Positions 516 to 24,164 of a stretch of 64,000 bases of DNA are shown here, in pieces. Position 1 is the first letter of the stretch; each line of letters begins with the position of its first letter. The notes under the pieces are model-generated. The model was not told the DNA's origin, did no database searches, and saw only the letters and a program-made list of their open reading frames with translations. Origin of the DNA: Pseudomonadota bacterium (GTDB lineage Archaea; Thermoplasmatota; SW-10-69-26; JACQPN01; JAJPHT01); assembly GCA_021325135.1 (NCBI GenBank), contig JAJPHT010000030.1, positions 32,001 through 96,000 on the forward strand. The letters run 5' to 3'. The position numbers and the translations under genes were made by a program.

Positions 516-562
516 GGTGCTCTGAACGAGGACTTGGTTCAGGGACGAGTGGGGGTCAGGGA

Positions 563-1510
563 TCAGGCGCTCGGGGGCGCCCGGGCGGCGAGGACCGCCT
601 CGATGCGGGAGGCTTGGCGTTCGCCGCGGACGAGGCCCAGGTATTCGCGCAGGTCGTCACTGTCCAAGGCGTCGAGGTCCTCGTCGTCGAGGCGGTCGCC
701 TTCGGCGACGTCCGCCCAGTCGAGGAGGACGTGGTCGGCTTCCTTGTGCGTCTGCGCATCGTACACCTTGGCCAGGCCCCCGCCTTGGGCGAGGGTGATC
801 ACGATCCGACCTGCGCTCTGGGCAGGCGAGGGCGCATGGGCGATGGTGTCCAGGAGGAGGTTGGCAAGATCCTCCGCCAGACACCAACGCTCGTAGGAGG
901 CGCGGAGCACGGGGTCGGCCATGGTGCGCGTCATGTTGCTCGCTTCACGGTGGAGCACGACCATGCTCGCCTCCTCTTGCGGCAAGCCCTCGACCTGGGC
1001 GACCCGATCGACGAGATCTCGGACGGCCCACTTCTCCCTCCACAACGCCTCGCGCATGGTGCTGAGGCGCTCCTGTGGTGGGCAGGTGTGGATGTAGTGG
1101 TACTCGTCGAGGGCGAGCATGAGGAGCCGCTCGCACGCGGCGGCTGGGGAGTCGTCCGCGTGGGCGTAGCGCCGGCTCTGGAACGTCGGGCCGTGGTCGA
1201 GGGGCTTGACGGGCTTGCCGCACGCGCGACAGGAGACCTTCTGGACGTCGCGGGGCTTGCGGCCTCCCTTCGGAACCTCCTTGACGATGGTGGAGTCCAC
1301 GCACTGCCAGGGAAGCTCGCTGGGAAGGCCGACGCGCCGGGCTTGAAGGGCGTTCGTGTTCGGGGTTGCGTCGGGGAGGATTTCGAGGCTCACGCGGACG
1401 TGGCGTCCGTGGAGGCGCGCGAAGTCGAGGCTGGGCAGGAGTTCCCAGGCGTCGAACCCCGCGGCGAGTTCGCGTTCGGTCGGAAAGGTGATCTCTTGAG
1501 TCAATCTCAT
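563..1510 (-). CDS. hypothetical protein (CxxC, acidic C-terminus)
   Basis: 315-aa ORF, start supported by motif 1524-1536. Confidence 0.75.
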   Translation of the reverse strand: MRLTQEITFPTERELAAGFDAWELLPSLDFARLHGRHVRVSLEILPDATPNTNALQARRVGLPSELPWQCVDSTIVKEVPKGGRKPRDVQKVSCRACGKPVKPLDHGPTFQSRRYAHADDSPAAACERLLMLALDEYHYIHTCPPQERLSTMREALWREKWAVRDLVDRVAQVEGLPQEEASMVVLHREASNMTRTMADPVLRASYERWCLAEDLANLLLDTIAHAPSPAQSAGRIVITLAQGGGLAKVYDAQTHKEADHVLLDWADVAEGDRLDDEDLDALDSDDLREYLGLVRGERQASRIEAVLAARAPPSA

Positions 1511-1547
1511 GGGAATGCACGGGAGACTTCGTCCAGGATGATGGGAT

Positions 1548-1997
1548 TCAGAGGGAGTACCGGACGGGGAGAGGTGGCAGGGGCGCAGCGGCGGGCGCGC
1601 TGGCTCCGGCCTTGCGGACGGCGCTCACGAAGCCGTCCCAGTCGGCGAGCCGCGCGTAGGGCCACCACTGGTTGGTCTTGCCGGTGTAGTCGGTCCGGCT
1701 GCGGCAGCCGCGGAACATGAGCCCGTAGCCCGTGTCCTGGCAGAACTGGACGTAGACGGTGTCGGCGTGGAGGACGCTTTCCCCCGATCCGGCGGGCCCG
1801 CCCGGCTGGAAGCGGAGATCGTAAGCGTTCTCGTCGAGGCCGAGTTCGGCCGCGAGCGCGCGGAGGATCTTGAACCCGAGGCGGCGGAACTCGCTCTTGG
1901 GCGTCTTGCCGCGCCCGTACTCGCCGCGGGCCTCGCGGGCCAACCGTGCGAGCTCCTCGATGTCCCTCGTGCTGGGGCGATGGGTTGTCTTGTGCAT
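1548..1997 (-). CDS. conserved hypothetical protein of mobile-element type
   Basis: PGGPAGSGESVLH..VYVQ..MFRGC..RTDYTG..N motif; start MHKTT chosen from motif spacing. Confidence 0.75.
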   Translation of the reverse strand: MHKTTHRPSTRDIEELARLAREARGEYGRGKTPKSEFRRLGFKILRALAAELGLDENAYDLRFQPGGPAGSGESVLHADTVYVQFCQDTGYGLMFRGCRSRTDYTGKTNQWWPYARLADWDGFVSAVRKAGASAPAAAPLPPLPVRYSL

Positions 1998-2085
1998 GGT
2001 TGAAGAATTGGGAGGCTTGGTCCACGCGGGCTCCGAAGTGGCGAGCCCGTCTGGGGCGTCTATTCCCCTGGGCCCTCTGGTGGAG

Positions 2086-2850
2086 CTACGGTGCTGGTTG
2101 GTCGTGGCGCGCGAGGAGAGCATGGCCCAGCGCTTCGGTGGCCTGCTCCAAGGTCAGTTCGGGGTAGAGCGAGAGGGCATATGCGTCCCAGAGGCTCGCG
2201 TCGGTGGAGTCGGGGATGTCGTGCTCGTCCGGTCCGCCGTTGCCGCGGTTGCGGATTTCGCCGACGCGCAGCCATTGCTTCCGCTTGAAGCGCTCCAGCG
2301 TCGCCACGAAGGCGTAGCCGTTTCCGAGTTCTAGACCCTTGACCTGTGTGATGCGCCAGGGGGCGTCGCGCGGCAGGCGAGCGTCCTGCTCGGCGAGTTG
2401 GGCCTCCAGCTCGCTCTCGGTGAGGACGCGGATGCTCGGGTCGGGCGTCCCGTAGTTCTTGCCCGTGATCCAGATGTTTTCCCGTGTCGCGTCGTGTTCG
2501 AGCGTGCCGTCGGGTTGGACGATGTACGGGAGGGCGCCTCCGGTGTCGCGGCCTCCTTCGAGCTGGTCGGCGAGGTTCCTTGCGGCTCGGCGCGCGGCGC
2601 GATCCGTCAACAACGGGCGGAGGCTGTGGATGCCGCCGCGGTTGTGAAGGAGCCGGATTGGCAAGGACTCGTTGGGCTTGGCCATCGCGAAGCACTCCTC
2701 GCAGAGGAAGAGGCTCACGCGCCAGATTGTGACGAGCTTCGTGGCGAGTCGGGCGCAGTCTTTGCACGTCTGGCGCGTACCTCTCCTGACGGGGGCGACG
2801 CTCGCGATGGTGAAGAAGGTCTCGGCGTTGGCGTGTTGGATCGATTTCAT
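2086..2850 (-). CDS. hypothetical protein with CxxC..CxxC zinc ribbon
   Basis: CKDC...CEEC; motif 2867-2879 upstream. Confidence 0.7.
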   Translation of the reverse strand: MKSIQHANAETFFTIASVAPVRRGTRQTCKDCARLATKLVTIWRVSLFLCEECFAMAKPNESLPIRLLHNRGGIHSLRPLLTDRAARRAARNLADQLEGGRDTGGALPYIVQPDGTLEHDATRENIWITGKNYGTPDPSIRVLTESELEAQLAEQDARLPRDAPWRITQVKGLELGNGYAFVATLERFKRKQWLRVGEIRNRGNGGPDEHDIPDSTDASLWDAYALSLYPELTLEQATEALGHALLARHDQPAP

Positions 2851-3044
2851 GGTCCAGGTAGAATCGAGACTTCGTCCATGCGCGCGTGCGAGCCTACAGG
2901 ATTGGGTCGAAGACGAGCGCGCGGATGCCGTGAATCGGGCATCCCTCGACGCCTCCGCTCAGGCGCGTGGCGGCGGTGAAGCAGACGCTGCAGAAGAGGA
3001 CCGGACTCGGGCCTCGGCACGCTGTAGCTTGGACGCGCATGCGT

Positions 3045-3824
3045 TCACCGCTTCAGCGCCAAGGCCAGGCCTGCGAGGCCAACGACGGCCGGGGGCGCTC
3101 CGCTTTCGCTGATCGCGTACATCGAGTTGAGGAACGCGTCCCCCGTGCCATGGTCTCGTCGCGGATTCCTTCGCAGCACCTCGGGCAGGACGACCTCGAC
3201 GGTCGTGTCGAGCTTGAAGGGGAGATTGTTGGTGTCTCCGCGTGCTTGAGCGACGCGCGTGGCGGCTTGGATGGCGGCCTCGGCCTGATCCACGCGGAAG
3301 TACCGATCGCGGTGGAGGTTCGAGTTGTAGTGGTTGACCACGCTCACGCTCGTGCCGCCATGGTTGTGTCCCAGACCGAAGGTGTTCAGCTCGAAGAGGG
3401 GCTCGCCCAGGGGCACGTGGAGCCTTCCCTCCACGAGGAGGAGGTCTCGTGCCCAGGCGCGCGCCAGGCGGCCGGCTTCGCGTTTCGATTCGGGTCGCGA
3501 GTAGGGGAAGCGCCGGTGTTCGATGGCGTCCTGGAGCGTCGCGTATCGGTTGGGCTCTGGGTGCGCGGTGTAGTGGCGCATCCTGGGCTGCACCCAGAGG
3601 CGCTTCCGCCACCAACGGTACTGGAGCCTCTCTCCACCACCGAAGCGCTTGCTGAATCCGTCGGGGAGCCAGCCCCGTTGGATGAGCGCGATGGGCGCTT
3701 CTGATTGCATGACTTCGGGGACGGTGACATTGAACGTCGCGGTCTGGTCGCGCCAGCGCAGCTTACGGTGTCGGCGCGTGGGAAGGTAACTCTCCAGGTA
3801 TGGGACGGGAACTTGAAGCTTCAT
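3045..3824 (-). CDS. hypothetical protein
   Basis: MKLQVPVPYLESYLPTRRHRKLR...GLGHNHGGT; variant motif 3840-3853. Confidence 0.75.
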   Translation of the reverse strand: MKLQVPVPYLESYLPTRRHRKLRWRDQTATFNVTVPEVMQSEAPIALIQRGWLPDGFSKRFGGGERLQYRWWRKRLWVQPRMRHYTAHPEPNRYATLQDAIEHRRFPYSRPESKREAGRLARAWARDLLLVEGRLHVPLGEPLFELNTFGLGHNHGGTSVSVVNHYNSNLHRDRYFRVDQAEAAIQAATRVAQARGDTNNLPFKLDTTVEVVLPEVLRRNPRRDHGTGDAFLNSMYAISESGAPPAVVGLAGLALALKR

Positions 3825-3876
3825 CGAGATCGGGTGAATGGGCTTCGTGCCACGAGGCCTCGGGTGATCGTGGGGC

Positions 3877-4050
3877 CTACTTGAAAGCCAGGCGTTGGAC
3901 GCGGTCGAGGAGCGTCTCGGGGTCACCGGTGGCGGTCAGGATCAGGATGTGCATGCCGCTGGGGTTCCGAGGAGGGCGGATGCAGACCTGGAAGGTGAGC
4001 TTCGAGGTGCCTTCCCCGTCGGTGACGTCGATGCACGTCGTATACGTCAT
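3877..4050 (-). CDS. small hypothetical protein
   Basis: ATGA overlap with the MTase stop codon. Confidence 0.55.
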   Translation of the reverse strand: MTYTTCIDVTDGEGTSKLTFQVCIRPPRNPSGMHILILTATGDPETLLDRVQRLAFK

Positions 4051-5087
4051 GCGGGACAAGCCGTCGCCTCCGATGGGCCCAGGATGTCTTCCTGGAGGAT
4101 CCGCTCGATCCACTTCGGATCCTTGTCCACCAGGATGACGCGGCGCCCCAAGGCCTGGACGCGCCGCGCCCAGCGGGCTCTACCGCAGAAGGGATCGAGG
4201 ACAACGTCGCCGGGGCTCGTGAGCATGCGGATTGGGGCGAGGAAGGCCTCGATGGGTTTCTCGGCCTCGTGTTCGCGCGCGGTGGGGTCGCACGCGCGGT
4301 GGACGCGCCTGACGCGCAGGACGCTCTGGTTGTGGCGCGCGTCGCGGGGGATGCCGGCGCGCGGCGTGGCGCAGAAGTAGTGCCAGAGCCAGTGGCGCTG
4401 GGCGGGCCAGTAGCCCCCGATGCGGTGTTCGTAGTCCACGACTTGCTCGAAGACGTACTCGAATCCGCAGGACTCGGCCAGCGCGATGAGCGCGTCGATG
4501 TGCTTGCGCGTGTCGCGGTTCCGGGGCGGGCTCCAGATGACGCAGAAGCCGCCCGCTTGCTTTGGAGGGCCTCCGCGCAGGGCGGGGTAGGGGCGTCGTT
4601 TGACGAGGAGGCGGTGTGCTTGGCGGAACCACTCACGATCGGGGTCGCGCTGCTCGTAGGTGCGGCCCTTGCCGCGGGGGCCTCGCGATGTTCCGTGGCG
4701 CTGCGCGTTCTGCTTCGTGCCCAGGTCTGCGGGGATGTCGCTGAGGATCAGGTCGATGCTTTCGCTGGGCAACTGGGGCATGATGGTCCAGGCGTCGCCG
4801 GTGACGAGGACGAGTTGCGCGGGTCCGTCGATGGCGACGAACACGCCGCGGGCGATGCGCAGGAGCCGGCCCTTGGCGAGGTGTTCGTAGACGCGTGCCC
4901 GCACGGTTTCTTTCGCTGTCCCGGGCCGCAGGTACAGGACGAGTTCGTAGAGCTCGCCCAAGGCCCGGGGCTGTTCGCGGAGGGAGTCGAGGATCAAGGG
5001 GGCCAGGGTGGTTTGCTTGGGTGCGCCGGGCGTGCTCGACGCCTGGGCGCGGCTTGTGCGGGGTGGTCGTGATCGTGTTGGAAGCAT
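4047..5087 (-). CDS. wHTH-fused beta-class N6/N4 DNA methyltransferase-like protein with degenerate motifs
   Basis: GDAW..LPSESIDLILSDIPA (DPPY position), HEAEKP, SPGDVVLDPFCGRA (FxGxG position), VILVDKDP; N-terminal ETVRARVYE..LLRIARGVF wHTH. Confidence 0.8.
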   Translation of the reverse strand: MLPTRSRPPRTSRAQASSTPGAPKQTTLAPLILDSLREQPRALGELYELVLYLRPGTAKETVRARVYEHLAKGRLLRIARGVFVAIDGPAQLVLVTGDAWTIMPQLPSESIDLILSDIPADLGTKQNAQRHGTSRGPRGKGRTYEQRDPDREWFRQAHRLLVKRRPYPALRGGPPKQAGGFCVIWSPPRNRDTRKHIDALIALAESCGFEYVFEQVVDYEHRIGGYWPAQRHWLWHYFCATPRAGIPRDARHNQSVLRVRRVHRACDPTAREHEAEKPIEAFLAPIRMLTSPGDVVLDPFCGRARWARRVQALGRRVILVDKDPKWIERILQEDILGPSEATACPA

Positions 5088-5123
5088 GGTCGTGTTGCAG
5101 GTCTTCGTCCAAGGGGGGAGGGC

Positions 5124-5765
5124 TCAGGGGTGGCGCGCGCGGAAGGCATCGGCGGCCTGGAGCGCCGCGCGAAGGATGCGTTCCGCTTCGGTGCGGTCGC
5201 CGCGGATGAGGGCGGCGAGAGCGTCTCGCGCATCGCCCCTGGAGACGAGCATCATGGGGCGACGCTCGCACTTGGGGCACGTTCCATGGGGGTTCACAGG
5301 GGGCGGGCCGGGCGGCGCGAAGCGGCGGAGCGGCGTGGCCGGGGTGGCCGTGTCGGCTCTGGGGTGCCGGGCCTGGAGGTCCTCGGCGCGCTGGTGGCTG
5401 ATGCTCCAGACCCGCAAGTCGCCCGCGTCGAGGGTGGCGCCGAAGACGCCGTCGGTGGCAGGATCGCTCCGATGCAGGGCGGCCGCGAAGGCGCGATCCA
5501 GCGCATCGCCCTCCGGGAGGGGTCCGGCATAGCGCGCGATCTCGACGCCGCCCTCGACGAGGAGCACATGATGCTCAGCCGCTGGGGCCAGGAGCACGTC
5601 GCCGTGGGTGTTCTCGACGCGCAGGACTTGGGGTTCGTCGAGTTCGACCGGTTCGACTCCGCTGGGGCGGCCAGCCTCGAGCCGTTGGAGCGCCTCCTCG
5701 GCGGTCGGGGCCTCGATCGTGTGGTAATGCAGGACTTCGCGGCGGATGATGAGGAAGGATGGCAT
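5124..5765 (-). CDS. hypothetical protein (C-terminal CPKC)
   Basis: Start MPSFLII supported by motif 5779-5791. Confidence 0.7.
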   Translation of the reverse strand: MPSFLIIRREVLHYHTIEAPTAEEALQRLEAGRPSGVEPVELDEPQVLRVENTHGDVLLAPAAEHHVLLVEGGVEIARYAGPLPEGDALDRAFAAALHRSDPATDGVFGATLDAGDLRVWSISHQRAEDLQARHPRADTATPATPLRRFAPPGPPPVNPHGTCPKCERRPMMLVSRGDARDALAALIRGDRTEAERILRAALQAADAFRARHP

Positions 5766-5802
5766 GAGGAAGGAACGCTGGCTTGGTCCAGTCCGAGGGG
5801 GC

Positions 5803-7569
5803 CTACTGGGGGACTTTGGCGCGCTTTGCCGCGCGCGCGAGGCTGGCGTCCAGGTCCTCGAGGGCGCGGCGGGAAGCACTCTCGAGGGCGTGGATGGGCG
5901 CGCGGCGCGCGAGGAGCTTGGCCTGGTGGAGCCGCGTGATCGTCTCCACGACGTCCGCCAGTTCTTGGCGCTTGGCCACGAGGGCGTAGTAGTGCTCTCG
6001 CGCCTTGACAATCTTCGGGCCGAGGAAGTCCATGGTGGCGCGCGTGATGAGGTCGGCGCGCAGGGCCTCCCTGTGCAGGTCTTCCTCGTCGTAGTCCCAC
6101 CACGAGTTCGCCAGCCAGTCGCCTTCGTCGCCGCGGGCGACGTAGTTCTGGATCCACTGGTTGAGCTGTTGGGCGGGGAGCCCGGGGAGTTCGACGGTTT
6201 GGCCGGTCAGGAGGCGGACGAGCGTGTCGATGTCCGTGGCGATCACGAGTCGGCCCTCTTTGCAGAGGAGGAAGGGCAGCGTGTGGCCCGCGATGCGGAT
6301 CTCCTTGGCGAGGCTGATCCAACCCTCCTCGGCCGCCTGGAGTCCCGTGATCTCGACGTGTGCCGCCGAGGCTAGCTCGGGTGTGTCGGGGGCTCCACGG
6401 GCTCGGACCGCGAAGGGAAGGTTGGCGCCGAGGTGGATCGCGTAGTTGATGCTCTGGGCGACTGCGGCGTCGTTTGTGTCTTGGACGAGGATGTAGTCCT
6501 TCGTGTAGCGGTGGATCTTCTGGAGGTTGTCTTGCCAGCCGCCGTTCTCGACGTAGTACATGCCGAGGTCTTCGTAGTCCTCGCACGTGGCGGCCCGCCA
6601 GCCGAACTCGCGGCGGAGGGCACGGCCCCGGTTGGTGTCGAAGATCCAGCGCGTCTCGGAGGCCTCGGGTTCGTCGGTGAGGACGCGGGGCCATGAGGCG
6701 GTGGCTTGTTGGGCGAGGGCGCGGTGGTGGTCCTCGGCGGCGCGCAGGATCGTCTCCGCGGCGGCGTGGAGCGCGGGGTTGACGTCGAGGTCGTTGCGGT
6801 CGGGGAGCTTGGGCCGTGTGCCGCTCTTGGGGTCCACGAACCACGCGTACACGAAGTCAGCCAGCAAGCCGCGGCGAACGGGGTTCTGCGCTGCCGCAGC
6901 GATCATGGCGCGTTGGAACGCGTTCTGGTCGCCTTCGATGGCGCGGTACTCCCAGATGGGGAAGCACGGGTCGGGGGCGTCGGGCCATCTCTTGTGGCAT
7001 TCCACCACGCGGCCCACCGGGGTGTCGAACTCGCGCTTCGCGTCTGGGACCTCGGCGGGGGGAAGGGTCTCGCCGTTGAGCGTGACGTGGAAGGGGTAGT
7101 ATCCCCGCGCCTCGCGCAGGTCCTGGTCGGCCTTGGGATCGACGAGGAGCAGCGTGATGCACATGCCCTTCCTGGGCTCGGCGTGCTCGACCAGGATGGG
7201 GCGGCGTTGGAGGACGTCGGTGGCGACGAGGTGGACCCGCCAGTTCTGGGAGTGGACCTCGACGCTCGCGGCGACCGATTCGTGGAGCACGCTGTAAAAG
7301 CCCATGCCGGCGGGCTCGGTGATCTTCGTTTCGTCCCATCCCGTCTCTCCAGCGCTCAGGAGGAGCTGGGGGTCGGGGCAGCCGATCCCGTCGTCTTCGA
7401 AGACGAGGAGGTTGCCTTCGTGGCGGATGGTCACGGAGCGGGCGCCCGCTCGGTGGCTGTTCTGGAAGAGTTCGCGCAGCGCTGCAAGCCGGCCCCCGAA
7501 AAAACTGGGGATCTTGGCGATGAGGCGGTCGGTGAGCGCGGCCTGGATGGTCTTGGGCGTTTCGGTCAT
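5803..7569 (-). CDS. GHKL-family (HATPase_c/MORC-like) ATPase domain protein
   Basis: LRELFQNSHRAGA (N box), FEDDGIG (G1), EPAGMGFYS (G2), GMCIT (G3). Confidence 0.85.
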   Translation of the reverse strand: MTETPKTIQAALTDRLIAKIPSFFGGRLAALRELFQNSHRAGARSVTIRHEGNLLVFEDDGIGCPDPQLLLSAGETGWDETKITEPAGMGFYSVLHESVAASVEVHSQNWRVHLVATDVLQRRPILVEHAEPRKGMCITLLLVDPKADQDLREARGYYPFHVTLNGETLPPAEVPDAKREFDTPVGRVVECHKRWPDAPDPCFPIWEYRAIEGDQNAFQRAMIAAAAQNPVRRGLLADFVYAWFVDPKSGTRPKLPDRNDLDVNPALHAAAETILRAAEDHHRALAQQATASWPRVLTDEPEASETRWIFDTNRGRALRREFGWRAATCEDYEDLGMYYVENGGWQDNLQKIHRYTKDYILVQDTNDAAVAQSINYAIHLGANLPFAVRARGAPDTPELASAAHVEITGLQAAEEGWISLAKEIRIAGHTLPFLLCKEGRLVIATDIDTLVRLLTGQTVELPGLPAQQLNQWIQNYVARGDEGDWLANSWWDYDEEDLHREALRADLITRATMDFLGPKIVKAREHYYALVAKRQELADVVETITRLHQAKLLARRAPIHALESASRRALEDLDASLARAAKRAKVPQ

Positions 7570-7761
7570 GCTTGTCGTAGCTTGGGCTTGGTCCAGGGGC
7601 GTGGTCGTGCCTGTTTAGGGAAGGTCTGTCTGGAGCCGCTCCTTGCAAATCTCCAGGAGGTTGTGGGTGCCGTCCCGCGGCCTCAAAGTCGGGAAGCTGA
7701 TCGACGGCGCGGGGTCCGGTCTCCCTCGCGGATGCTGGTGGCGAGTCCTTGAGGGTCGTCC

Positions 7762-9218: not shown

Positions 9219-9273
9219 GGGGTTCGAATCGAGGACTTCGTCCAGGCTCGACGCAAGAGGCGCCTGTCGCAGT

Positions 9274-15077: not shown

Positions 15078-15124
15078 GGTTCTCTGAAAGGGGGCTTCGT
15101 CCACTGGCGTGCAGGGGCGCTGGA

Positions 15125-15775: not shown

Positions 15776-15817
15776 GGGTACTCCTATGGGCTTGGTTCGA
15801 CGATGGGGGGCGCGGGG

Positions 15818-16999
15818 TCACTTGCTGGTGGCGGGCTGGACGATCTGGATGAGGCCCTCCGCATCGGCGCCGTACCAGCCGCGTGCAGCAGCGATGGCTT
15901 CCGCGCGCGTGTCGTAGTTGTCGATGTCCTTCCAAACGCCGGGGCCTTGGTCGGGATCAGGCAGGGAGACGTAGTGGCGCAGGCCGTCCTCATCGTCCTC
16001 TTGCTGGTTGACCAGACAGATGCGGCCCTCGTCGTCCGCTCCCCAAGTGGTCTTCGCGTACTCCACGGCGGCCTGCTTCGTAGCGAGCGTGTCGAGGCTG
16101 CGCCAGACGCCGTCGTGCCGTGTGTGGTCGGGGAGGAGGACCTCGTAGGGTGAGGTGGGCTCGCGCGCTTCTTGGGCTACGGCGAGGAAGATGTCGCTGA
16201 TCTGCTGCATGCTCTTCGAGAGCTCGCGAGTGGCCGCCTCGAAGAGGATGTCCTCGTCCAAGGCGCCGGCCTGCCGTGCCGCGAGGAGGGCCTCCTCCAC
16301 TTCTGCCAAGACGATGGCTGGAAGGCCGGATGCGTTGGGCGTGAGGGCGTCTGGGTCTCCCGTGGGGCCTTCGAACCCACGAGATGCCAGCGCAACGAGG
16401 CGGGCACGGGCGCGGCTCGTGGCGGGGTTGTCCTTCTGCGCGCTCGCGGAGGTGTCCTGGTGGTCGGCTGGGGCTTCGATCTTGGCGATCCCGGCGCCAT
16501 GGACCACTTCAAAGGATCGGAGGGCATCGTCGAGGCGCTGCACGAGTCGGTGCGGGTCTTCGCCCGTGATGCGGGTGCAATCTTGGGCGTCGTCGCGAAG
16601 GCGACGAAGCACCGGCGGCGTGATGGCGTCGAGGTCAGGCAGGAGGGCGCAGAGTTCCGCGTAACGCCCGTGGGCTTCCATGGCTGTGAGGGTGGTGCAG
16701 TAGCGCGACATGTCGTATTCGATGCGCAAGACTGCCTCGGCGCGTGACAGGTCAAGGCCCTCGGCGCCGTTCCAGTCGGGCACGCCGATGGCGCGCAGCT
16801 GGTCGAGCATCTCACGGAGCGTACTCAACGCCCCTATCGTAAGTTCGACAAGGTCTTCGGGTTTCACGAGGCAACCCTGGATGAGGTGGCCCTCGGAGCC
16901 CACGAACGTGAGCGCGTTGAGGATCTCGCAGGGTGATCGCCCTTGGCGGCTCTTGATGGCCACCAGGGCGAGGAGCTGGTCGCGGGTGTCGGGTTTCAT
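15818..16999 (-). CDS. hypothetical protein with tandem C-terminal ~50-aa repeat
   Basis: Start MKPDT via motif 17017-17029. Confidence 0.75.
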   Translation of the reverse strand: MKPDTRDQLLALVAIKSRQGRSPCEILNALTFVGSEGHLIQGCLVKPEDLVELTIGALSTLREMLDQLRAIGVPDWNGAEGLDLSRAEAVLRIEYDMSRYCTTLTAMEAHGRYAELCALLPDLDAITPPVLRRLRDDAQDCTRITGEDPHRLVQRLDDALRSFEVVHGAGIAKIEAPADHQDTSASAQKDNPATSRARARLVALASRGFEGPTGDPDALTPNASGLPAIVLAEVEEALLAARQAGALDEDILFEAATRELSKSMQQISDIFLAVAQEAREPTSPYEVLLPDHTRHDGVWRSLDTLATKQAAVEYAKTTWGADDEGRICLVNQQEDDEDGLRHYVSLPDPDQGPGVWKDIDNYDTRAEAIAAARGWYGADAEGLIQIVQPATSK

Positions 17000-17142
17000 G
17001 GTCTTCAGATCGCTTGGGACTTGGTTCAGGCCCTTCGACCGGGGCGGTCGGCGGGATAGGCAAGGAACACGCCAGGGCAAGGGGTCCACCGCTGGTAGCA
17101 TGGGGCTTGGTTCCATGCAGGCGGGGTATCGACGAGCCCGCG

Positions 17143-17667
17143 TTATTCGGAAGCGCCGGGGTGCTTTGGGGACGGGGCTCGGAGGGCGCCGATGGTGTGG
17201 GGGAGGCGGCCTTGGCCTGCGAGTCGGAGGAAGGTCTCGCCATGCCGGGCGAACCAGGCTCGTCCGGCCTTCGTCAGTTCCACGCGGCATGGCTGCGTGC
17301 GCTTGTCGAAGCGGGCGAGTTCGGGGTAGCCTGCGGAGCCGCCCAAGGAGTAGGGCGCGTTGTAGGAGAGGTCAAGGATCGATACGTGGCCGCTCTGGGG
17401 CGCGAAGCCTTGACGGCGCATTTGGTTCTCGACCTCCCCGCGGGTGGGTCGGCTTCGTCCGGGCCGCTGGAGCGTGTGGAGCGCTGCGACCAGGTGGGCG
17501 AGCTTGACGCTCAGGCCGCCCGTGGCCCGGCGCTGGAAGTCACGGACATCCGCGCGGGAGCGGCGCGAAAGAAAGCGTCGGAGCGCTTCCTCGTCCACGT
17601 GCCAGAGCGCGGCCATTTCCGCGAGGCGCGGGAATTCGGTCTGGATCTTGGGAGAGCCTGTTCTCAT
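17143..17667 (-). CDS. hypothetical protein, possibly winged-helix
   Basis: VELTKAGRAW wing-like end; motif 17683-17695. Confidence 0.6.
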   Translation of the reverse strand: MRTGSPKIQTEFPRLAEMAALWHVDEEALRRFLSRRSRADVRDFQRRATGGLSVKLAHLVAALHTLQRPGRSRPTRGEVENQMRRQGFAPQSGHVSILDLSYNAPYSLGGSAGYPELARFDKRTQPCRVELTKAGRAWFARHGETFLRLAGQGRLPHTIGALRAPSPKHPGASE

Positions 17668-17691
17668 GGTGGATACAACGTGGGGCTTGGG

Positions 17692-17892
17692 TCAGGGGGC
17701 GCGGATACGAGAAGAGATGGGGTTGGTCTCGCCGCGCTTCCAGCGCAATTGCATGGTGTGGGCGGGGTTGCTCGCGAAATGCTGGAGGGCGACGTCCAAA
17801 GCGACGGCGGCGTCGAACCAGGAGCCGCAGCTGCACTCGAAGCCGCATTGGAGGTGGGCATACGGAATGCGGAATTGCCGGGTGGTGCCCAC
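17692..17892 (-). CDS. small zinc-finger-like protein
   Basis: GTG start after GAGGTGA; CSCG..F...HF....H. Confidence 0.5.
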   Translation of the reverse strand: MGTTRQFRIPYAHLQCGFECSCGSWFDAAVALDVALQHFASNPAHTMQLRWKRGETNPISSRIRAP

Positions 17893-17896
17893 GATG

Positions 17897-18478
17897 TCAC
17901 CTCGCTTCGCTGGTGTGCGCGCGGGCGGCCAGCGCGGTCGCCTCGGCCCGGCGCCCGGCGAGGCGGAGCCATTCTTGCAAGGCCTGCATGAGATGCAGCG
18001 CGGCCGCCGGCTCAAGGGGTCCATCCAGGCGGGTCAGGAACTCCGTGGCCGCGAAGTTCAGGGTTCGCCACTCTGGCGTTCCAACGAACCTCAGCGGCGG
18101 CCCTTGGCTGCCCATGCGGGGGTCGGGGTCCCAACCCGCCTGGATGCGAAGCGCGACGGCGCCGGGGTCCGCCATGAGGTAGGCACCGTACTCGGGGGTC
18201 GTGGGCTCGGGCATCTGGCCGGGCACTCGCCAAGTTGCCTCGCCTTGGGCGCTGACGCGTGCTTCGAGGCTGAAGGGAACCGTCTCGAACCGCTCGGGAC
18301 GTCCAGGCGCGCGGATTGCGTAGACGGTTCGGATGGAGCACTCGTGGGCGGATGCGAGGGCGTGCGTCGTCGCGGCTTGGAGCGCGTCTTTGCGCGAGGG
18401 CTCGGTCGTGATGATCGAGGGCTCGGCAGGCGGCTCTGCTTGAACCTGCCAGACTTGGATTCGGGTCGTTCTTGTCAT
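17897..18478 (-). CDS. hypothetical protein
   Basis: Motif 18492-18504 upstream. Confidence 0.7.
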   Translation of the reverse strand: MTRTTRIQVWQVQAEPPAEPSIITTEPSRKDALQAATTHALASAHECSIRTVYAIRAPGRPERFETVPFSLEARVSAQGEATWRVPGQMPEPTTPEYGAYLMADPGAVALRIQAGWDPDPRMGSQGPPLRFVGTPEWRTLNFAATEFLTRLDGPLEPAAALHLMQALQEWLRLAGRRAEATALAARAHTSEAR

Positions 18479-18555
18479 GTGGATTCTCGATGGACTTCGT
18501 GCATGCTGCCCGGGCGTGATTGCCCGGAGGGTAGAGGAGGAGCCAGCCGTGGGTC

Positions 18556-18765
18556 CTACGTGCAGACGGGGGAGAAGTGGCGCAGCGGATCGCAGGCGCC
18601 CTCGTGGGCGTCCGGCGCTCCGAGCGTGTGGCCCAGGAGGTGTTCCTTCAGGTCATGCTCGGGGACGGGATCGCATGCGGGGCTGATGAGGCACCGGAAG
18701 TGCCTCACTCCCTGGGCGAGCGTCGCTTCGGCGGCCTGGGTCAAAGGGGACAGAATGGGCGTCAT
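18556..18765 (-). CDS. small Cys/His-rich protein
   Basis: CLISPAC...HLLGH; ATGA overlap. Confidence 0.5.
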   Translation of the reverse strand: MTPILSPLTQAAEATLAQGVRHFRCLISPACDPVPEHDLKEHLLGHTLGAPDAHEGACDPLRHFSPVCT

Positions 18766-19340
18766 GGAGAGTTCTCGGTTGGCGGGGTTTCGTTCGACTT
18801 GGGCATCGGGAGGGGTTGGTCGCTGCGCAGACCGCAGGTGGGGCAGGCGTGCTCCGCGCCATCCAGGATGGGGGTCATGGTGGCGAGGCACGCGGGGCAA
18901 AGGAGGGCGCCGTGGTGACCAGCGTCGATGGTGTTGCCCTCGGCGTCGCGGATGCGGCAGCGGTGGCAGAGCTGTTCGACGTCCAAGGGGCCGGGGCGGC
19001 CGCATTGGGCGCAGGAGCCCAGGAGCTCCTCCCGAAGGTCCTCGTTGTCGCTCAGGTAGAGGGTCGGCTTCTCCGCGACATGCAGCTTGACCAGGCCGAC
19101 CTGCGTCAATTCCTGCGGCGTCGCCTCGGCCAGAATTTCGGTCCACGAGAGAGGGTCCTCCAGGACGAGCCGATTGGGGCCGAGCCGCTCCAGGACGTTC
19201 CACGCGAGCTCGGTGAGGGCCTGTTGGGCGTCGAGGTCGTGGGTCGCGAGGTAGGTCTCCGCTTCCCGGTGGGGCGGGCGGAGGGTGGGATCGTGCTTCT
19301 CGCGGACGAGGCGGAAGCTCTGACCGCTGCGGACCCTCAT
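18762..19340 (-). CDS. double zinc-ribbon protein
   Basis: CAQC, CHRC, CPAC, CPTC; ATGA-coupled to the FEN1-like gene. Confidence 0.7.
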   Translation of the reverse strand: MRVRSGQSFRLVREKHDPTLRPPHREAETYLATHDLDAQQALTELAWNVLERLGPNRLVLEDPLSWTEILAEATPQELTQVGLVKLHVAEKPTLYLSDNEDLREELLGSCAQCGRPGPLDVEQLCHRCRIRDAEGNTIDAGHHGALLCPACLATMTPILDGAEHACPTCGLRSDQPLPMPKSNETPPTENSP

Positions 19341-20338
19341 GCCATCGCCCCCGACGACGTCGGCGAGAGGAGGCTGGGGAAGCCCCACTCGACGCGGGAT
19401 AGGTCGGCGTCCGCGACGGGTTCTTGGTAGATGCGGCGCGCCGCGAACCAGGGCTCGGGGTTGGGAGCGTGTTCGCGCACGAGCTGCTCGAACCCCTCCT
19501 TGCGGAGGGCTTCCAGCGCACGCGGAAGCCCCTCGCCTCTGGCGCCACCCGGCAGCAGGGGGTCGGCGTAGTCGGTCATGCCGGCCACGACGTAGGCCTC
19601 CATGAGCTCCGTGGCGTCCCTGGCGCCGGTCACCTCGAGGAAGCCCGGTTGGGCCTCCGTGCCGCGCAGGGCTTGCCACCCGTTGCTCTGGGGCCAGTGG
19701 CGGCTGACGCGCTGCGCGCCGTGGAGCACGGTATCCATGTCGCGGGTCGCGGCGGTCCAGGCGTGGCCGTTGCGGCACCAGATGGCGGCCTGCGTTTCGG
19801 CCTCGCCGGGAGCGTGGCAGACGGGGAAGCCGGCCTCTTGGAGGGCGCGCGCGATGGCCTCGTGGTCGTCCGCCGTGAGGTGGACGGCCCGCCGGGCGCT
19901 CTTGCGGGCTTCGTGGTCGAGGGTTGCGACTTGGGCGCGCTTCGCGGCCTCCGCGGGCTCGCCGGGCCGGATGGTGCTGGCGAGTTCGCGCGCCTCTTGG
20001 GCGAGACGGGTGGCGTGCTCCTTGGCGGCCTCACGGGTCTCTCGACGGGCCTGAAGGGCGGCCTTCTTGGCCGCCGGGGCGGGCCCATCGAGGATGTAGA
20101 TCGGCAGCGCGTCGGGAACCTCCCCAACGAAACGCGTGGCGGCCTCAAGCGCAGCATGGATCCCGATCTGGCGCGCCGAGGCGCCCTCCAGGAGGACCTT
20201 GTCGTGCCGTTGGGCGACGAGGCGGTAGAAGTGGTTCCGAGCGTCCACCGCCCAGATGCGCACGCGCGGCCGCTCGTGGGCCGCGCCAGGAGTCTGGAAG
20301 GTGGTTGTCGGCTGCGTGGTCGGATGGGTGTTGGTCAT
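19337..20338 (-). CDS. FEN1/XPG-family flap endonuclease-like protein
   Basis: WAVDARN.FY, PIYILDG.AP..KK...RR, APGEAETQAA, ATRDMDTVLHGA, AGMTDY, GEG..RAL (H3TH-like). Confidence 0.88.
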   Translation of the reverse strand: MTNTHPTTQPTTTFQTPGAAHERPRVRIWAVDARNHFYRLVAQRHDKVLLEGASARQIGIHAALEAATRFVGEVPDALPIYILDGPAPAAKKAALQARRETREAAKEHATRLAQEARELASTIRPGEPAEAAKRAQVATLDHEARKSARRAVHLTADDHEAIARALQEAGFPVCHAPGEAETQAAIWCRNGHAWTAATRDMDTVLHGAQRVSRHWPQSNGWQALRGTEAQPGFLEVTGARDATELMEAYVVAGMTDYADPLLPGGARGEGLPRALEALRKEGFEQLVREHAPNPEPWFAARRIYQEPVADADLSRVEWGFPSLLSPTSSGAMA

Positions 20339-20371
20339 GGATTCTCCAAAGAGTCTTCGTCCAGGTTGCTG

Positions 20372-20385
20372 GGAAAAAAGGGGAG
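20372..20385 (-). terminator. Oligo-pyrimidine (CTCCCCTTTTTTCC) archaeal-type terminator candidate
   Basis: T6 tract directly after stop 20386 and just before motif 20352-20364. Confidence 0.4.
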
Positions 20386-20925
20386 TCAAGAGATCGCGTG
20401 GGCGGGTGGCGGTTGTGCCAGGCGCGCCTCGAGGCTGGACGCGTCTGGGAACGCCTCGCACCGAACGCCCTTCGCGGAGGTCGTCACGAGGAGGGCGTGG
20501 GCGAAGCGCAAGAGCCGGGCGTCCCGAGGCGACACGGCGGGTGCGCGCGTCGCGAGGTAGTCACGGAGCTCGGTCCAGGCAGCGTGGTCCTGCCACGCTG
20601 GGAGCCAGCTCTTTGCGGGCGCGCAGCGCGCGCTCGAAGAGCGCGTGGAATGATTCGGGCAAGAGGCAGAGCCGCCTGCCATCGGGAAGTTTCGCTCCCA
20701 CGCCGTGGTCGAGTAGGAATGTGTCTCCTCCGGGTTCGGGTTGGCTTGCTCGTAGGCGCGGCTGAGGAGGCGCATCACGTCGGCCTCGGCTGGCGCGCCG
20801 AGGGGAATCGCGATGTGTATGCTCACGCGGCCGTCGTCCTGGAGGATGCGAGCTTGGCCGGCGTAGGTGACGCCATCGAGGTCGATGCCGGCCTCGTGGG
20901 GGCTGGTGTCCACTGGCTTGTTCAT
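20386..20925 (-). CDS. hypothetical protein
   Basis: Motif 20940-20952 plus GGAG. Confidence 0.65.
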   Translation of the reverse strand: MNKPVDTSPHEAGIDLDGVTYAGQARILQDDGRVSIHIAIPLGAPAEADVMRLLSRAYEQANPNPEETHSYSTTAWERNFPMAGGSASCPNHSTRSSSARCAPAKSWLPAWQDHAAWTELRDYLATRAPAVSPRDARLLRFAHALLVTTSAKGVRCEAFPDASSLEARLAQPPPAHAIS

Positions 20926-20973
20926 GATCTCCAAAATGAGGGCTTGGTCCAGGGCTTGGGGGTTGGCCGTGGA

Positions 20974-22395
20974 TTAGGGGAGGTAGGCGAGGTAGGCCTG
21001 AGTGGGCCCACCCAGCGCGCCGTACGTAGTCTGCTCGCCGGCTTCCATGGCGGGGAAGGCGTCTGGGATGGTGACGTCGAGCCGCGAGCAGACGTCGCGA
21101 ATGGCTTGGAAGTCCGTGGCGAGGCAGTGCTGGTTGCTCAACGCGCTCAGCGTGGGCAAGGCGGGGGGCGCGGGGAGGTGGGGTTCGGTGCGGATGAGAC
21201 CCACGACGTCCTCGCCGTTGAGGGGCCCGGCGTTGGCGTTCGCGCCCACGGGCGTGCCCCACCAGTCGAGGAGGCTGTAGACGGTGTGGGCCGGATCGCC
21301 CAGGACGGGGATCGGCGGCGTGGCGGGACGCTGGGGATTCGGCGCCACGAGGAGGGGCGCGTACCACTTGCCCGTGCTGGCGGCGGTGGCGCTGCTGCTC
21401 GCGGCGGGCATGGCGGTGGGGTTGCTGGACTCGTTCCACCAGAACGGGTACCCGTTGCACGTCCAGGGATTCGTCACGAGCGAGGGATCCCCCGATGTCG
21501 TGGGGGCTGCCGTGTAGACGACTTGGGCGTACCAGAAGCTCAGGCTGAAGCTGCTGTCGCTCGTCGTCACCGTCGTGCTCGGCTCCGTGTGCTGGTCGAT
21601 GAAGACGCCGTTGAGGTTGCCCTCGAAGTTCGTGCTCTTGACGGTGGGTGTGGCGCCTTCTTCGACGACGAGGCCCGCGCCATTGCTGCTGTCAATACCC
21701 GTGGGGCTCGCGGGGTCGTGGTGCATGACCCAACCGTCGCGGCGGAAAAGATCACCGTAGAAGATCCAGTTCGTCGTGGGGCCGGTGAAGCGGGCGCCGC
21801 TGCCGTAGTTGTACTTCAGGTCTGTGTAGCTCACGTTGCCGCTGCTGGTGCCCTCGACGAGGATCCCGCTGCGCAGGGCTTGCTGGATGTTGCTGTTGAC
21901 GACATGGATGCCTTGGCTGTCCACCACGTGGAGGCCGTAGAGCGCGTCGTGGGGGCTTGGGCTGACCTCGTCGGCGGGCAGGGGAACGAAGCCGATCCCG
22001 TCGATGCAAGCGACCATCTCGCCGTAGATGGCGAAGGTCGTCAGGCCGGTGAGTTCGACGTAGTCGGTGTGGATGATCTCGCCCCCGCTGGGGTAGCCGT
22101 GGTCGGCGAGGTCGTGCAGGTCGAGGCTGCGGCTCTCCACGACGTAGGGGTCGCTGGTGGTTCCGGTCCCCGTGATGCCGCGCGTGTCGTACTCGAGCCC
22201 GTGGTAGCAGTCGGCGGGGGCGCCGTCCACGAAAGCGAATGGACCGAGGGGAGCGGGGTCTTGCCAGTGGGCGTCTCCGCAGGCGTATCGGGGGGGCGTG
22301 AAGCTGGGGTCTGCTCCTGCTGGCGGCGTGACGGGATTGAGGCCGACGAGGAAGGTGGCGATGAGGAGGCCCAAGAGGGCGGGGATGGTTCTCAT
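20974..22395 (-). CDS. secreted right-handed parallel beta-helix protein
   Basis: Signal peptide MRTIPALLGLLIATFLVG; GTGT.SDPYV; GLHV, GILV, NF.GNLNGVFI repeats. Confidence 0.75.
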   Translation of the reverse strand: MRTIPALLGLLIATFLVGLNPVTPPAGADPSFTPPRYACGDAHWQDPAPLGPFAFVDGAPADCYHGLEYDTRGITGTGTTSDPYVVESRSLDLHDLADHGYPSGGEIIHTDYVELTGLTTFAIYGEMVACIDGIGFVPLPADEVSPSPHDALYGLHVVDSQGIHVVNSNIQQALRSGILVEGTSSGNVSYTDLKYNYGSGARFTGPTTNWIFYGDLFRRDGWVMHHDPASPTGIDSSNGAGLVVEEGATPTVKSTNFEGNLNGVFIDQHTEPSTTVTTSDSSFSLSFWYAQVVYTAAPTTSGDPSLVTNPWTCNGYPFWWNESSNPTAMPAASSSATAASTGKWYAPLLVAPNPQRPATPPIPVLGDPAHTVYSLLDWWGTPVGANANAGPLNGEDVVGLIRTEPHLPAPPALPTLSALSNQHCLATDFQAIRDVCSRLDVTIPDAFPAMEAGEQTTYGALGGPTQAYLAYLP

Positions 22396-22504
22396 GAGGT
22401 TGTCTCCGAAGGGTAGGGCTTCGTTCACGTGGCCCCGATGTGGGACAGGCGCGTCCCGGTCGCGGGGCTGGAGGTTCTCCTATTTGTGGGGATCGTACGC
22501 GGGC

Positions 22505-24046
22505 TCAGAAGAGGGCCGCGAGTTCCACGGCCCGCGTGGAACCGCCGCGGTTCAACAGAGCGCATTGGGCGCGGCGGCGCAGCCGCGCGCTGAGCGCGGC
22601 CAAGGCGGCGTCGCCCAATTCCAACCGGGCCTCCTTCGCCGCCTCGCTGGCGGCGTCAAGATCGCCCGAGTCGATCAGGCCGTTGCAGCGCTCTTCGAGC
22701 CGGTGGATGCGCCGGGTCAGCCGGCGCTCCTCGGTGGGCGAAAGGGGCGCGCGCGGCGCAATCTGCACCTCCACGAGGCTCGCCGCTTCAACCTGAAGCT
22801 TCTGCGCCGGCTGGGCGGGCGCACGAGGCGTCCTGCTGCCGCGGAGGCGGAGGTTCGCCTCCAGCGCCAGGAGACGCCCAGCCAGATGGGCCAAGGGCTC
22901 ACCCGTCTTGAGTTGGGCCTGCTCGAAAAGGGCGCGTGCCTTCTCCGTCTTGCCCTGCCGGATCAGATCCGTGCACATGCGCTCGATGCCCCCAAGGTAC
23001 TGGAACCGGGCCTCGGCGCGCGTCTTGCCGTCGAGGCGGTGCCGCGCCACGACCGCGTTGAGGCGCCCCGCGAGGCTGGGCAGGGGCTCACCACTGAGGC
23101 GGCTGAGCTCCTCGGCCAAGCTCATGGCCTTCTGGGCGTAGCCCGCCTCCAGCATCCGAACGATGTCCGCCTCCGTCTCCTGTGCCGCCTGGCGAGCGGC
23201 GCGGGCCTGGGCGCTCTCGAGCCGGGCCCGGACGCGCTCCAGGCGCCCCTCTAGGGTGGCCTCGGCGCGCCCGAGCAGGGCCTCCGCCGTCGCGAGTTCG
23301 CCGGCGCGGATGAGGTCGTGGAGTTCGCGGCCCACGCCGCGCGCGTACTCGGCGCGCGCCGTGTCGATCTGGTCACGTAGCTCGTAGTAGATGTACCCGC
23401 AGACCTGCTCCGCGTGCGCGACGGCTTGCGCCGCCTCTCGGATGCGCTGTTCGCCCAAGAGCGTGGGCGTGGTGGCTTCCAGGTGGGTGCGCCAGGCCTC
23501 GATGACGCTGTCGCGGGCGGGGTTGTCGGGCAGACCCGTGAGGCGCTCCATGGCCTGCTCGCGCTCCATCGCCTTCTCGAACTCGCCCTGCGCGATGAGC
23601 CGCTTGATGTCGTCCTGTTCGGGCGCGGTTGCCTCGCGCAAGAGACCACAGAGCAGGTTGTAGAGCTTCGGGAAGCGCTCATTGGCGAACGCCTCGAAGG
23701 CCGCGAGTAGGCTGAACGCCTGGGTGAAGCGCTTCTCGCGCCTCACCCTCGGGTCGCGAGCGATCTCTTCGATCACGCTGCGGATGCGGCTCACCGGCAC
23801 GCCGCTCACGCGCAGGTCTGTGAGCAGCTCATGGTTGGCCGGCGTTCGGATCAGGCCGCTCTCGAAGGCGGCCGTCGGGTGCAGTTGGGGACGCTTGCGA
23901 CGCGGCCCATTGGCGGGTGTGTTCGCGTCGATCGCGGTGGCGGCGCTGCTCGTTGTGAGTGGAACTTCACCGGGCAGGGCGACGGGCGCGTTCGCGGCCG
24001 TCTGCGTCGTCGAGTTGTCGATCTGGCTTTCGCTAAGGGATGTCAT
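22505..24046 (-). CDS. alpha-helical repeat protein
   Basis: LI..G...A repeats; motif 24065-24077. Confidence 0.75.
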   Translation of the reverse strand: MTSLSESQIDNSTTQTAANAPVALPGEVPLTTSSAATAIDANTPANGPRRKRPQLHPTAAFESGLIRTPANHELLTDLRVSGVPVSRIRSVIEEIARDPRVRREKRFTQAFSLLAAFEAFANERFPKLYNLLCGLLREATAPEQDDIKRLIAQGEFEKAMEREQAMERLTGLPDNPARDSVIEAWRTHLEATTPTLLGEQRIREAAQAVAHAEQVCGYIYYELRDQIDTARAEYARGVGRELHDLIRAGELATAEALLGRAEATLEGRLERVRARLESAQARAARQAAQETEADIVRMLEAGYAQKAMSLAEELSRLSGEPLPSLAGRLNAVVARHRLDGKTRAEARFQYLGGIERMCTDLIRQGKTEKARALFEQAQLKTGEPLAHLAGRLLALEANLRLRGSRTPRAPAQPAQKLQVEAASLVEVQIAPRAPLSPTEERRLTRRIHRLEERCNGLIDSGDLDAASEAAKEARLELGDAALAALSARLRRRAQCALLNRGGSTRAVELAALF

Positions 24047-24164
24047 GCTGAATTCTCCAGAATTGGTCTTGGTTCAGGCTGGGGCTCGGTGGGCGCCTCG
24101 CGCCTAGGGGCGACCCAATGGGTCAGAGAGGCGCGACGCGTTGCGACCCGGCCGCAGGGCGTGG

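Follow-up and report, generated by a model that had tools for sequence, protein, structure and literature searches.

Start-associated sequences (SAS) of cluster K mycobacteriophages are 13-nt repeats that stand in one orientation before non-structural genes, mostly with ATG starts (80/93), and their function is unsettled (PMC3203893). A comparable motif was found in a stretch of 64,000 nt (the window), which comprises positions 32001-96000 of contig JAJPHT010000030.1 (C46) in assembly GCA_021325135.1 (3.77 Mb, 72% G+C, 94% complete). The organism is archaeal, with genes for TATA-binding protein (TBP) and three for transcription factor B (TFB), and no sigma-70. About 50 genes are led by the motif, which is a private gene-expression signal of a mobile element and takes the place of the Shine-Dalgarno (SD) sequence. 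Like the SAS, it is a 13-nt asymmetric sequence that occurs in one orientation before unrelated genes, with a bias towards ATG, and is nearly absent from the host (PMC3203893). However, the SAS end 3-7 bp from the start codon and contain the SD core AGGAG, whereas the motif ends 12-16 nt away and has no GGAG; moreover, the host here is archaeal, there is no inverted repeat like that of the extended SAS (ESAS), and the SD is displaced by the motif (PMC3203893).

The stoperators of cluster A mycobacteriophages are also asymmetric 13-mers. Each is bound by a monomeric protein that has two DNA-binding domains, and the orientation of the site is important (PMC9283540, PMC6550527). They resemble the motif in having more than 20 copies, in lying in short intergenic gaps and in being locked to the direction of transcription, and site and reader co-evolve within a lineage (PMC9283540, PMC6550527). 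Another bacterial comparison is given by the leading-region anti-defence islands of conjugative plasmids, which contain orphan methyltransferases and are expressed early from unusual promoters (PMC11541004). These regions are one-directional and rich in methyltransferase and anti-restriction genes, as is the array of motif-led genes described here; they differ in that their Frpo elements, of which there are one or a few, are long single-strand hairpins instead of a short motif for each gene (PMC11541004).

Among archaeal elements, virus-specific consensus regulatory sequences precede early and anti-defence genes, and small DNA-binding regulators have been proposed for them (PMC11065993). They are element-specific and head many single, unrelated genes, as the motif does, and are considered to unite these genes in a co-regulated early set. 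In contrast to the motif, which lacks both, they contain a canonical B recognition element (BRE) and a TATA core (TTTAWATA), and their numbers are exceeded by far by the roughly 50 copies found here (PMC11065993). The intergenic repeats of halovirus HF2 showed promoter activity in a reporter assay, and very long read-through transcripts coexist with it (PMC8707807). These are likewise repeated between genes of an archaeal mobile element and head transcription units; however, they are 29 and 58 bp long, AT-rich, few and conserved in position among related viruses (PMC8707807), whereas the motif is 12-13 nt long, not AT-rich and absent from the relatives that were found. A preliminary description of this DNA, made from the sequence, had stated that no archaeal equivalent was known. 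The virus consensus sequences and the HF2 repeats qualify that statement, although it stands insofar as all of them contain a TATA box and the motif does not. Kessler et al. in 2004 reportedly described a GTC element beside the TATA box of the rudiviruses SIRV1 and SIRV2. To our knowledge, no archaeal counterpart of such a signal has been described, and the motif lacks a defining feature of each family with which it was compared.

A strand-specific motif anchored to start codons

The motif has the core TGRACSAAGHCY (12-13 nt) and is read on the minus strand of the window, which is the gene strand. Exact matches to YTGRACSAAGHCY number 12, all on the minus strand, where 0.12 were expected (100 shuffles, largest count 2), and with up to two mismatches there are 93 in the window against 36.7 expected. 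A weight matrix was built from 31 seed copies and scored in bits, with cut-offs of at least 13 and at least 16 bits; its conserved positions are T-G-R-A-C-S-A-A-G-H-C-Y. The motif is asymmetric, not palindromic and strictly strand-specific, with about 40% A+T. Alignment of the 31 seeds from -50 to -1 revealed no conservation outside the motif, so that any promoter function would have to lie within it. Between 530 and 24077 of the window, 24 copies of at least 13 bits were found, plus one weak copy at 14131-14143 (Table 1). The 25 copies of the preliminary description, the five positions it quoted and its claim that all copies lie in gene orientation were thus reproduced, the strand being minus for copies and genes alike. 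Its 24-kb array proved to be part of a longer one, which spans C46:11351-56077 on the minus strand and continues for about 20.6 kb to the left of window position 1.

The motif also leads a second array, on the plus strand of another contig of the assembly, C29 (C29:660-13385, locus L017). Ten copies there reach at least 13 bits, seven of them at or near 20 bits or more, with an ATG 13-15 nt downstream. Together with the 44 minus-strand copies of C46:11.3-56.1 kb, this gives 54 copies of at least 13 bits, all in gene orientation. At the stricter cut-off of at least 16 bits, C46:11-56 kb has 34 copies, all of them on the minus strand, and C29 has seven on its plus strand. The remaining ~3.5 Mb of the assembly (~7 Mb of strand) contain 18 such copies, and none of these 18 has an ATG 12-16 nt downstream. 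Further genomic comparison gave 29 occurrences of the pattern of motif, 11-17 nt and ATG for this genome, whereas each of 14 other genomes of the order has 0-2 and none of ~400 genomes sampled from the phylum has more than seven. A promoter of the host lineage was rejected on the basis of this scarcity, and the motif is a property of the element, not of its host lineage. The preliminary description had also raised the possibility that the motif is equally common before host genes or at random positions; instead, it is enriched over shuffles and restricted to one strand.

Of the 54 copies of at least 13 bits, 46 precede a start codon that opens at least 45 codons, and in 40 of these the motif ends 12-16 nt before it (12 nt in 2, 13 in 16, 14 in 12, 15 in 8 and 16 in 2; the other six spacers are longer). 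This agrees with the 12-20 nt, mostly 13-15, given earlier. The start codons are ATG in 42 cases, GTG in two and TTG in two, whereas in homologous arrays (see below) ATG opens 40 of 54 genes. The previous stop codon lies 89 to 10 nt upstream (stop-to-motif distance -89 to -10), and in six copies it is the TGA within the TGAAC of the motif. Because the distance to the stop varies and the spacer is fixed, the motif is anchored to the downstream start. In two pairs of orthologues, the aligned proteins confirm, or are consistent with, a start at the ATG that follows the motif. Those genes of the array that have no copy are SD-led, or else they overlap or directly adjoin the stop codon before them. 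Inspection of the array therefore upheld the earlier claim that such genes are translationally coupled or SD-led, while five positions that had been listed as their starts (4050, 8049, 12915, 17892 and 19340) are in fact the stop-codon ends of minus-strand genes.

Related arrays with Shine-Dalgarno sequences in its place

One of the motif-led genes (5803-7569) encodes a 588-amino-acid (aa) orphan with only six homologues among 5.8 billion clustered proteins. Its N-terminus agrees with that of the orthologue P0001 within four residues; the N-terminal part is GHKL/HATPase-like, and one homologue contains PF13589. Three of the contigs that encode homologues were examined (L019, L020 and L021, from Logan SRR28401808 and SRR33230358 and JGI 3300049432), and all were found to be arrays of the same type. 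They are one-directional, with 67-70% G+C, and encode GP88, one or more ligases, N6_N4 and Eco57I methylases, DUF3560, PAPS reductase and ArdC. The last was seen in L021, as ArdcN plus MPTase-PolyVal. These arrays appear to belong to archaeal-type elements, although in content they are similar to the leading-region anti-defence islands of bacterial plasmids. Orthologues of genes from both arrays described here, C46 and C29, occur in them in a different gene order.

No copy of the motif was found in these three arrays, and it is also absent from four more metagenome loci that were found through the C29 methylase, so that all of L019-L025 are without it. Instead, the genes of L019-L021 have a plain SD (aGGAGaa, GAGGTGa) 6-10 nt before the start. 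A strict SD precedes 39 of their 54 genes but only 8 of the 46 motif-led genes (Fisher 3e-8). The motif therefore occupies the place of the SD-led initiation region of kin elements and, because orthologues carry the motif here and an SD there, it arose in place.

These relatives bear directly on the three readings offered in the preliminary description, namely an element-specific promoter or operator, an RNA signal for translation or processing, and a recombination site for integron-like shuffling of gene units. The two that concern gene expression gain from the replacement of the SD and from the restriction to the element, and the third loses. Shuffling in the manner of integrons or of promoter early stem-loop (PeSL) cassettes would fit the arrays of C46 and C29, which share the motif and no homologous gene (no protein similarity at E<1e-5), and the varying gene order among relatives. 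It would also fit a single case in which similarity between C29 and contig C35 ends past a degenerate motif copy. However, relatives in which the motif is absent have reshuffled these gene families as well; orthologues have the motif here and an SD there; and a recombination site would need no fixed distance to an ATG. Integron cassettes require an adjacent integrase and attC sites, which are imperfect palindromes at the boundary of every cassette, whereas neither was found on C46 or C29: a six-frame Pfam search of the two contigs for tyrosine integrase (PF00589) and serine recombinase (PF00239) gave no match, and the motif copies include no inverted ones and have neither an attC-like fold (folding z +0.58, see below) nor a conserved flank. 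A recombination site is thus considered very improbable.

The C29/C35 case is as follows. Positions C29:1-700 and C35:1-700 are 90% identical for 535 nt and then more weakly similar; the weak similarity passes the degenerate copy TTGAACCAATCCT (C35:652) and then ends, after which C35 contains an inverted repeat (GTCCCG...CGGGAC) and DNA of host type. The start of C35 may be what is left of a third array, or a rearrangement may have broken it at the motif.

Table 1. Motif copies and features of the array head, in window coordinates
Feature	Position	Strand	Score (bits)	Spacer to start codon	Gene or remark
Motif-led gene array, window part	1..24077	-			44 copies of at least 13 bits in the whole array, none on the other strand; all genes minus
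CTGAACCAAGTCC	530..542	-	20.5	14 nt to ATG 515	286-aa gene crossing the left edge of the window
CTGGACGAAGTCT	1524..1536	-	19.6	13 nt to ATG 1510	563-1510
GTGGACCAAGCCT	2013..2025	-	17.7	15 nt to ATG	1548-1997
ATGGACGAAGTCT	2867..2879	-	18.1	16 nt to ATG	2086-2850
TTGGACGAAGACC	5100..5112	-	20.4	12 nt to ATG	4047-5087 (N6_N4_Mtase)
CTGGACCAAGCCA	5779..5791	-	16.5	13 nt to ATG	5124-5765
CTGGACCAAGCCC	7584..7596	-	19.5	14 nt to ATG 7569	5803-7569 (588-aa GHKL-like orphan)
CTGGACGAAGTCC	9233..9245	-	20.2	14 nt to ATG	8670-9218, then coupled gene 8046-8669
GTGAACGAAGTCC	10078..10090	-	19.8	15 nt to ATG	9274-10062
TTGGACGAAGCCT	10335..10347	-	20.0	14 nt to ATG	
TTGGACCAAGCCT	11258..11270	-	19.5	13 nt to ATG	10900-11244, then coupled gene 10394-10903
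TTGACCGAAGCCC	11688..11700	-	16.5	13 nt to ATG	11288-11674
TTGAACGAAGACG	13444..13456	-	17.1	13 nt to ATG; GGAG in spacer	12912-13430
CTGGACGAAGCCC	13717..13729	-	20.0	13 nt to ATG	
CTGGACAAAGCCA (weak)	14131..14143	-	11.2	14 nt to ATG	13811-14116
GTGGACGAAGCCC	15092..15104	-	18.8	14 nt to ATG	
TCGAACCAAGCCC	15788..15800	-	15.2	12 nt to ATG; GGAG in spacer	15125-15775
CTGAACCAAGTCC	17017..17029	-	20.5	17 nt to ATG 16999	Open reading frame reaches 15818
TGGAACCAAGCCC (weak)	17103..17115	-	13.3	13 nt to GTG	GTG in frame with the ATG of copy 17017..17029
CTGACCCAAGCCC	17683..17695	-	15.4	15 nt to ATG	17143-17667
ATGCACGAAGTCC	18492..18504	-	15.9	13 nt to ATG	17897-18478
CTGGACGAAGACT	20352..20364	-	19.2	13 nt to ATG; GGAG in spacer	19337-20338 (XPG_I); T6 run 15 nt upstream of motif
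CTGGACCAAGCCC	20940..20952	-	19.5	14 nt to ATG; GGAG in spacer	20386-20925
GTGAACGAAGCCC	22416..22428	-	19.6	20 nt to ATG; GGAG in spacer	20974-22395 (beta-helix)
CTGAACCAAGACC	24065..24077	-	20.1	18 nt to ATG 24046; GGAG in spacer	22505-24046; first copy of the array
SD-led "early" operon at array head, free of the motif	24165..28296	-			Starts preceded by AGGTGA, GAGG, GGAGG or GGAAAGGA
Candidate head promoter, host-type box TTGAAG	28417..28422	-			Box read directly; assignment as promoter inferred
Non-coding head region with T and A tracts	28297..29940	.			Read directly; upstream of the array

A signal on DNA or on RNA

That motif-led genes could lose their SD is explained only by a signal that supplies translation competence. 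Candidates for such a signal are a promoter for leaderless mRNAs, a ribosome-loading RNA signal and a processing site. The reading preferred here, tentatively and at somewhat less than even confidence, is an element-specific promoter-type signal that acts on DNA and is probably read by a DNA-binding protein of the early operon; its most likely form is a compact, TATA-less core promoter or an activator site. In this scheme, a host-type promoter at the array head (window ~28.4 kb) would drive the short SD-led early operon from 28296 to 24165. An early product, the candidate tandem helix-turn-helix (HTH) protein encoded at 27712-28296, would bind the asymmetric 12-bp site before each unit and position the host RNA polymerase, such that transcripts would begin with the ATG that lies 13-15 nt downstream, or only a few bases ahead of it. 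Such mRNAs, leaderless or nearly so, would not require an SD, and the ~50 motif-led genes would form one regulon switched on together, similar to the early and anti-defence gene sets of archaeal viruses and the leading regions of plasmids.

Support for a promoter-type signal comes in part from the host. Upstream of host genes, the hexamer YT[TG]AAG has a sharp peak at -31..-29 relative to the start codon, with AA ahead of it at -34/-33 and W after it at -11/-10. Judged from this arrangement, the host appears to produce leaderless mRNAs with an unusually G+C-rich "TATA" box. On contigs other than C46 and C29 the box appears as YT[TG]AAG(C), and many of the leaderless genes start with GTG. Five of the six positions of YTGRAC, the 5' half of the motif, agree with the host box; the motif differs in its invariant C instead of the G and in having no AA upstream. 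The fixed spacer, the preference for ATG, the leaderless habit of the host and this resemblance all support the promoter reading, as do the precedents from archaeal viruses (PMC11065993, PMC8707807). Moreover, the spacer from -12 to -3 is 45-60% A+T in an element of 68% G+C, and C stands at -1 in 78% of cases, which resembles an initially melted region followed by an initiator and supports a promoter as well.

The array head offers further support, as its SD-led, motif-free operon starts with a gene for an HTH-like protein. This first early gene (27712-28296) has no Pfam match, and its nearest Atlas clusters are of HTH_23, Sigma70_r4 and Mor-type tandem HTH proteins (score 0.87). A two-domain monomer would suit the asymmetric bipartite site TGRAC / AAGHC. 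No paralogue of the early-operon proteins was found elsewhere in the assembly or in the fragments of the relatives; therefore, the C29 array would have to be served in trans, unless its head is unassembled. The contig ends before the head of this array.

Several findings weigh against a promoter of this kind. YTGRAC begins at -25..-28, which is 3-4 bp nearer the ATG than the host box, so that a canonical start site would fall inside the coding sequence. When the host core promoter was used as a test (box at -31..-29, AA at -34/-33), the motif did not conform to it, and neither a BRE-like AA nor an AT-rich box was found upstream of the copies. An element-encoded TBP, TFB or Spt5/NusG was not detectable on C46 or C29, TBP and TFB being among the proteins that the preliminary description had proposed to look for on the contig. 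A T7-type polymerase was not detectable on the element either, a weak negative, as the PF00940 control matched 0 of 14 reference genomes. The candidate reader, named from a language-model score of 0.87, is a lead only. The spacers also contain SD-like remnants in excess, with GGAG found 8 times (1.1 expected), GAG at -7..-12 found 17 times (6.2 expected) and GAGAA found 8 times (0.7 expected), an indication that a third or more of the spacers are transcribed and put to use. Finally, termination unit by unit is not visible: the gene strand of C46:10-57 kb (~46 kb) has three T5+ runs, and oligo-T terminators seem to be avoided across the array. The SD remnants and the scarcity of T-run terminators favor a signal at the RNA level; alternatively, the same points fit a mixed regime in which read-through transcripts are translated too.

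Some details of these sequences are recorded here. The non-coding head region holds five of the eight gene-strand runs of at least five T in C46:10-62.5 kb. Of those in the array, one is at window 20379, 15 nt before a motif copy, and one is at 7504, inside a gene. In the spacers of window 530-24077 and C46:11-32 kb, a TCGATTCGA-like sub-motif recurs (TCGA 9 times, 2.1 expected). A second sub-motif, (A/C/G)GAGAA(C/T)C directly before the ATG, looks like an eroded form of the GGAGAA SD of relatives (to AGAGAA, CGAGAA). The four copies closest to the SD-led early operon all keep a perfect GGAG in their spacers.

Three further candidates were tried and rejected. An upstream TATA box or BRE is not supported by the flank, which is 25-38% A+T and C-rich once upstream stops are masked, the slight A+T excess at -23..-10 being derived from upstream stop codons. 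An RNA hairpin was rejected as the stretch from motif to start is less folded than shuffled (mean z +0.58); in a few copies, CTGAAC or CTGGAC pairs with the spacer, and no conserved hairpin, covariation or attC-like fold was found in the motif copies. Pairing with 16S rRNA, evaluated on the 16S of a same-genus genome, gave a mean duplex of -13.4 kcal/mol against -14.2 kcal/mol for shuffled sequences. The CAAGAC variants of the motif alone match one internal 16S site, and the 3' end of this 16S is ordinary, with the sequence GGAUCACCUCCU and the end GGATCACCTCCT. An SD lies 5-10 nt ahead of the start codon and pairs with the 16S 3' end; the motif does not show this complementarity, and it sits further upstream. 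The duplexes and the flank composition thus bear out the earlier view that the motif is neither an SD nor a canonical TATA box.

The main alternative, at the RNA level, which is held somewhat less likely than the promoter, is that a very long polycistronic RNA is made from the head promoter and that a protein, encoded by the element or the host, binds the single-stranded motif in it, at 13-15 nt from each AUG, either loading the small ribosomal subunit on SD-less cistrons or cutting the RNA into mRNAs with short leaders. This would account for the motif replacing the SD of homologous arrays at the translation-initiation region, and for its position directly 5' of eroded SD remnants that are kept above chance at SD distance. 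The near absence of T-run terminators on the gene strand and a motif-to-start stretch that is less folded than shuffled, as for a ribosome landing site, point the same way, as do the strand-specific, non-palindromic nature of the motif and the absence of a promoter-like flank. The cluster K SAS, its closest bacterial analogue, is also suspected to act in translation (PMC3203893). However, complementarity to 16S is not above that of shuffled sequences, the 16S 3' end is ordinary, conserved hairpins and covariation are absent, and no RNA-binding or RNase domain was recognized in the array or the head operon. Furthermore, we know of no archaeal precedent for a protein-mediated, SD-independent signal for internal initiation, which counts against this explanation.

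A stoperator-like function is unlikely. A monomeric two-domain repressor would in that case block elongating RNA polymerase at the intergenic gaps and silence the 45-kb array while the element is resident, as in cluster A mycobacteriophages. The asymmetric sites of 12-13 bp, their more than 40 copies in short intergenic gaps in the direction of transcription, and a candidate reader with two HTH-like repeats (again, a lead only) are consistent with it, but it explains neither the loss of the SD relative to orthologues nor the 13-15 nt spacing and the preference for ATG. Stoperators are not known to keep a fixed distance to a start codon or to replace an SD, and they include operator copies at the early promoter. 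The cluster A early promoters carry such operator copies, whereas no motif copy of at least 12 bits was found in window 24.1-31.9 kb, which includes the head region and the candidate head promoter.

In more general terms, and as a doubtful possibility, the element may have an initiation route of its own that bypasses TATA/BRE and SD, in which an encoded factor reads the 12-nt signal in DNA or RNA and loads RNA polymerase or the ribosome on ~50 genes. Such a route would be an archaeal functional counterpart, by analogy, of promoter appropriation by T4 MotA/AsiA or of the recruitment of ribosomes to SD-less genes by RfaH-ops. The probability that remains after these explanations is assigned to something else.

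Gene content and meaning of the signal

The C46 array encodes an ATP-dependent DNA ligase, orphan methyltransferases of the C5, N6/N4, Eco57I and other types, DUF3560, an XPG/FEN nuclease, a beta-helix protein and many orphans. Searches of PHROGs and Pfam revealed almost nothing beyond the methyltransferases, ligase, DUF3560, XPG_I and beta-helix. A phage database searched by megablast with the first 24 kb gave no match, IMG/VR contained no relative of the first motif-led protein, and no tRNA genes were found in C46:1-20000. In the C29 array, Pfam recognized GP88, PAPS reductase, an N6_N4 methylase and a phage zinc finger. Over C29:1-26 kb, G+C at third codon positions (GC3) falls from ~0.97, which is host-like, to ~0.8. 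Outside the array, the minus strand of the window contains a 3627-codon open frame (39190-50073) for a giant surface-type protein, beside pyrroloquinoline quinone (PQQ)/beta-propeller and FG-GAP proteins.

The ~50 motif-led genes would make up a regulon of probable establishment and anti-defence genes, most of them orphans. Gene content by itself makes the anti-defence fit suggestive, with five methyltransferase-type genes, the ligase and DUF3560 in the array and ArdC in L021. Whether the signal acts on DNA or on RNA, the motif outlines this regulon.

Archaeal gene starts are generally held to rest on TATA/BRE promoters, on leaderless 5' AUGs and on SD sequences. Here, about 50 genes have a fourth signal, private to the element, at the very place where an SD stands in their orthologues from related elements. 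If the motif is a promoter, it would represent a TATA-less class that needs an unknown specificity factor, and it would give a first indication that an archaeal mobile element can appropriate promoters. If it acts at the RNA level, it would mean SD-independent initiation on internal cistrons. In both cases, a 12-nt site and one candidate reader gene provide a test object, and an archaeal case is added to the unexplained start-associated sequences of mycobacteriophages.

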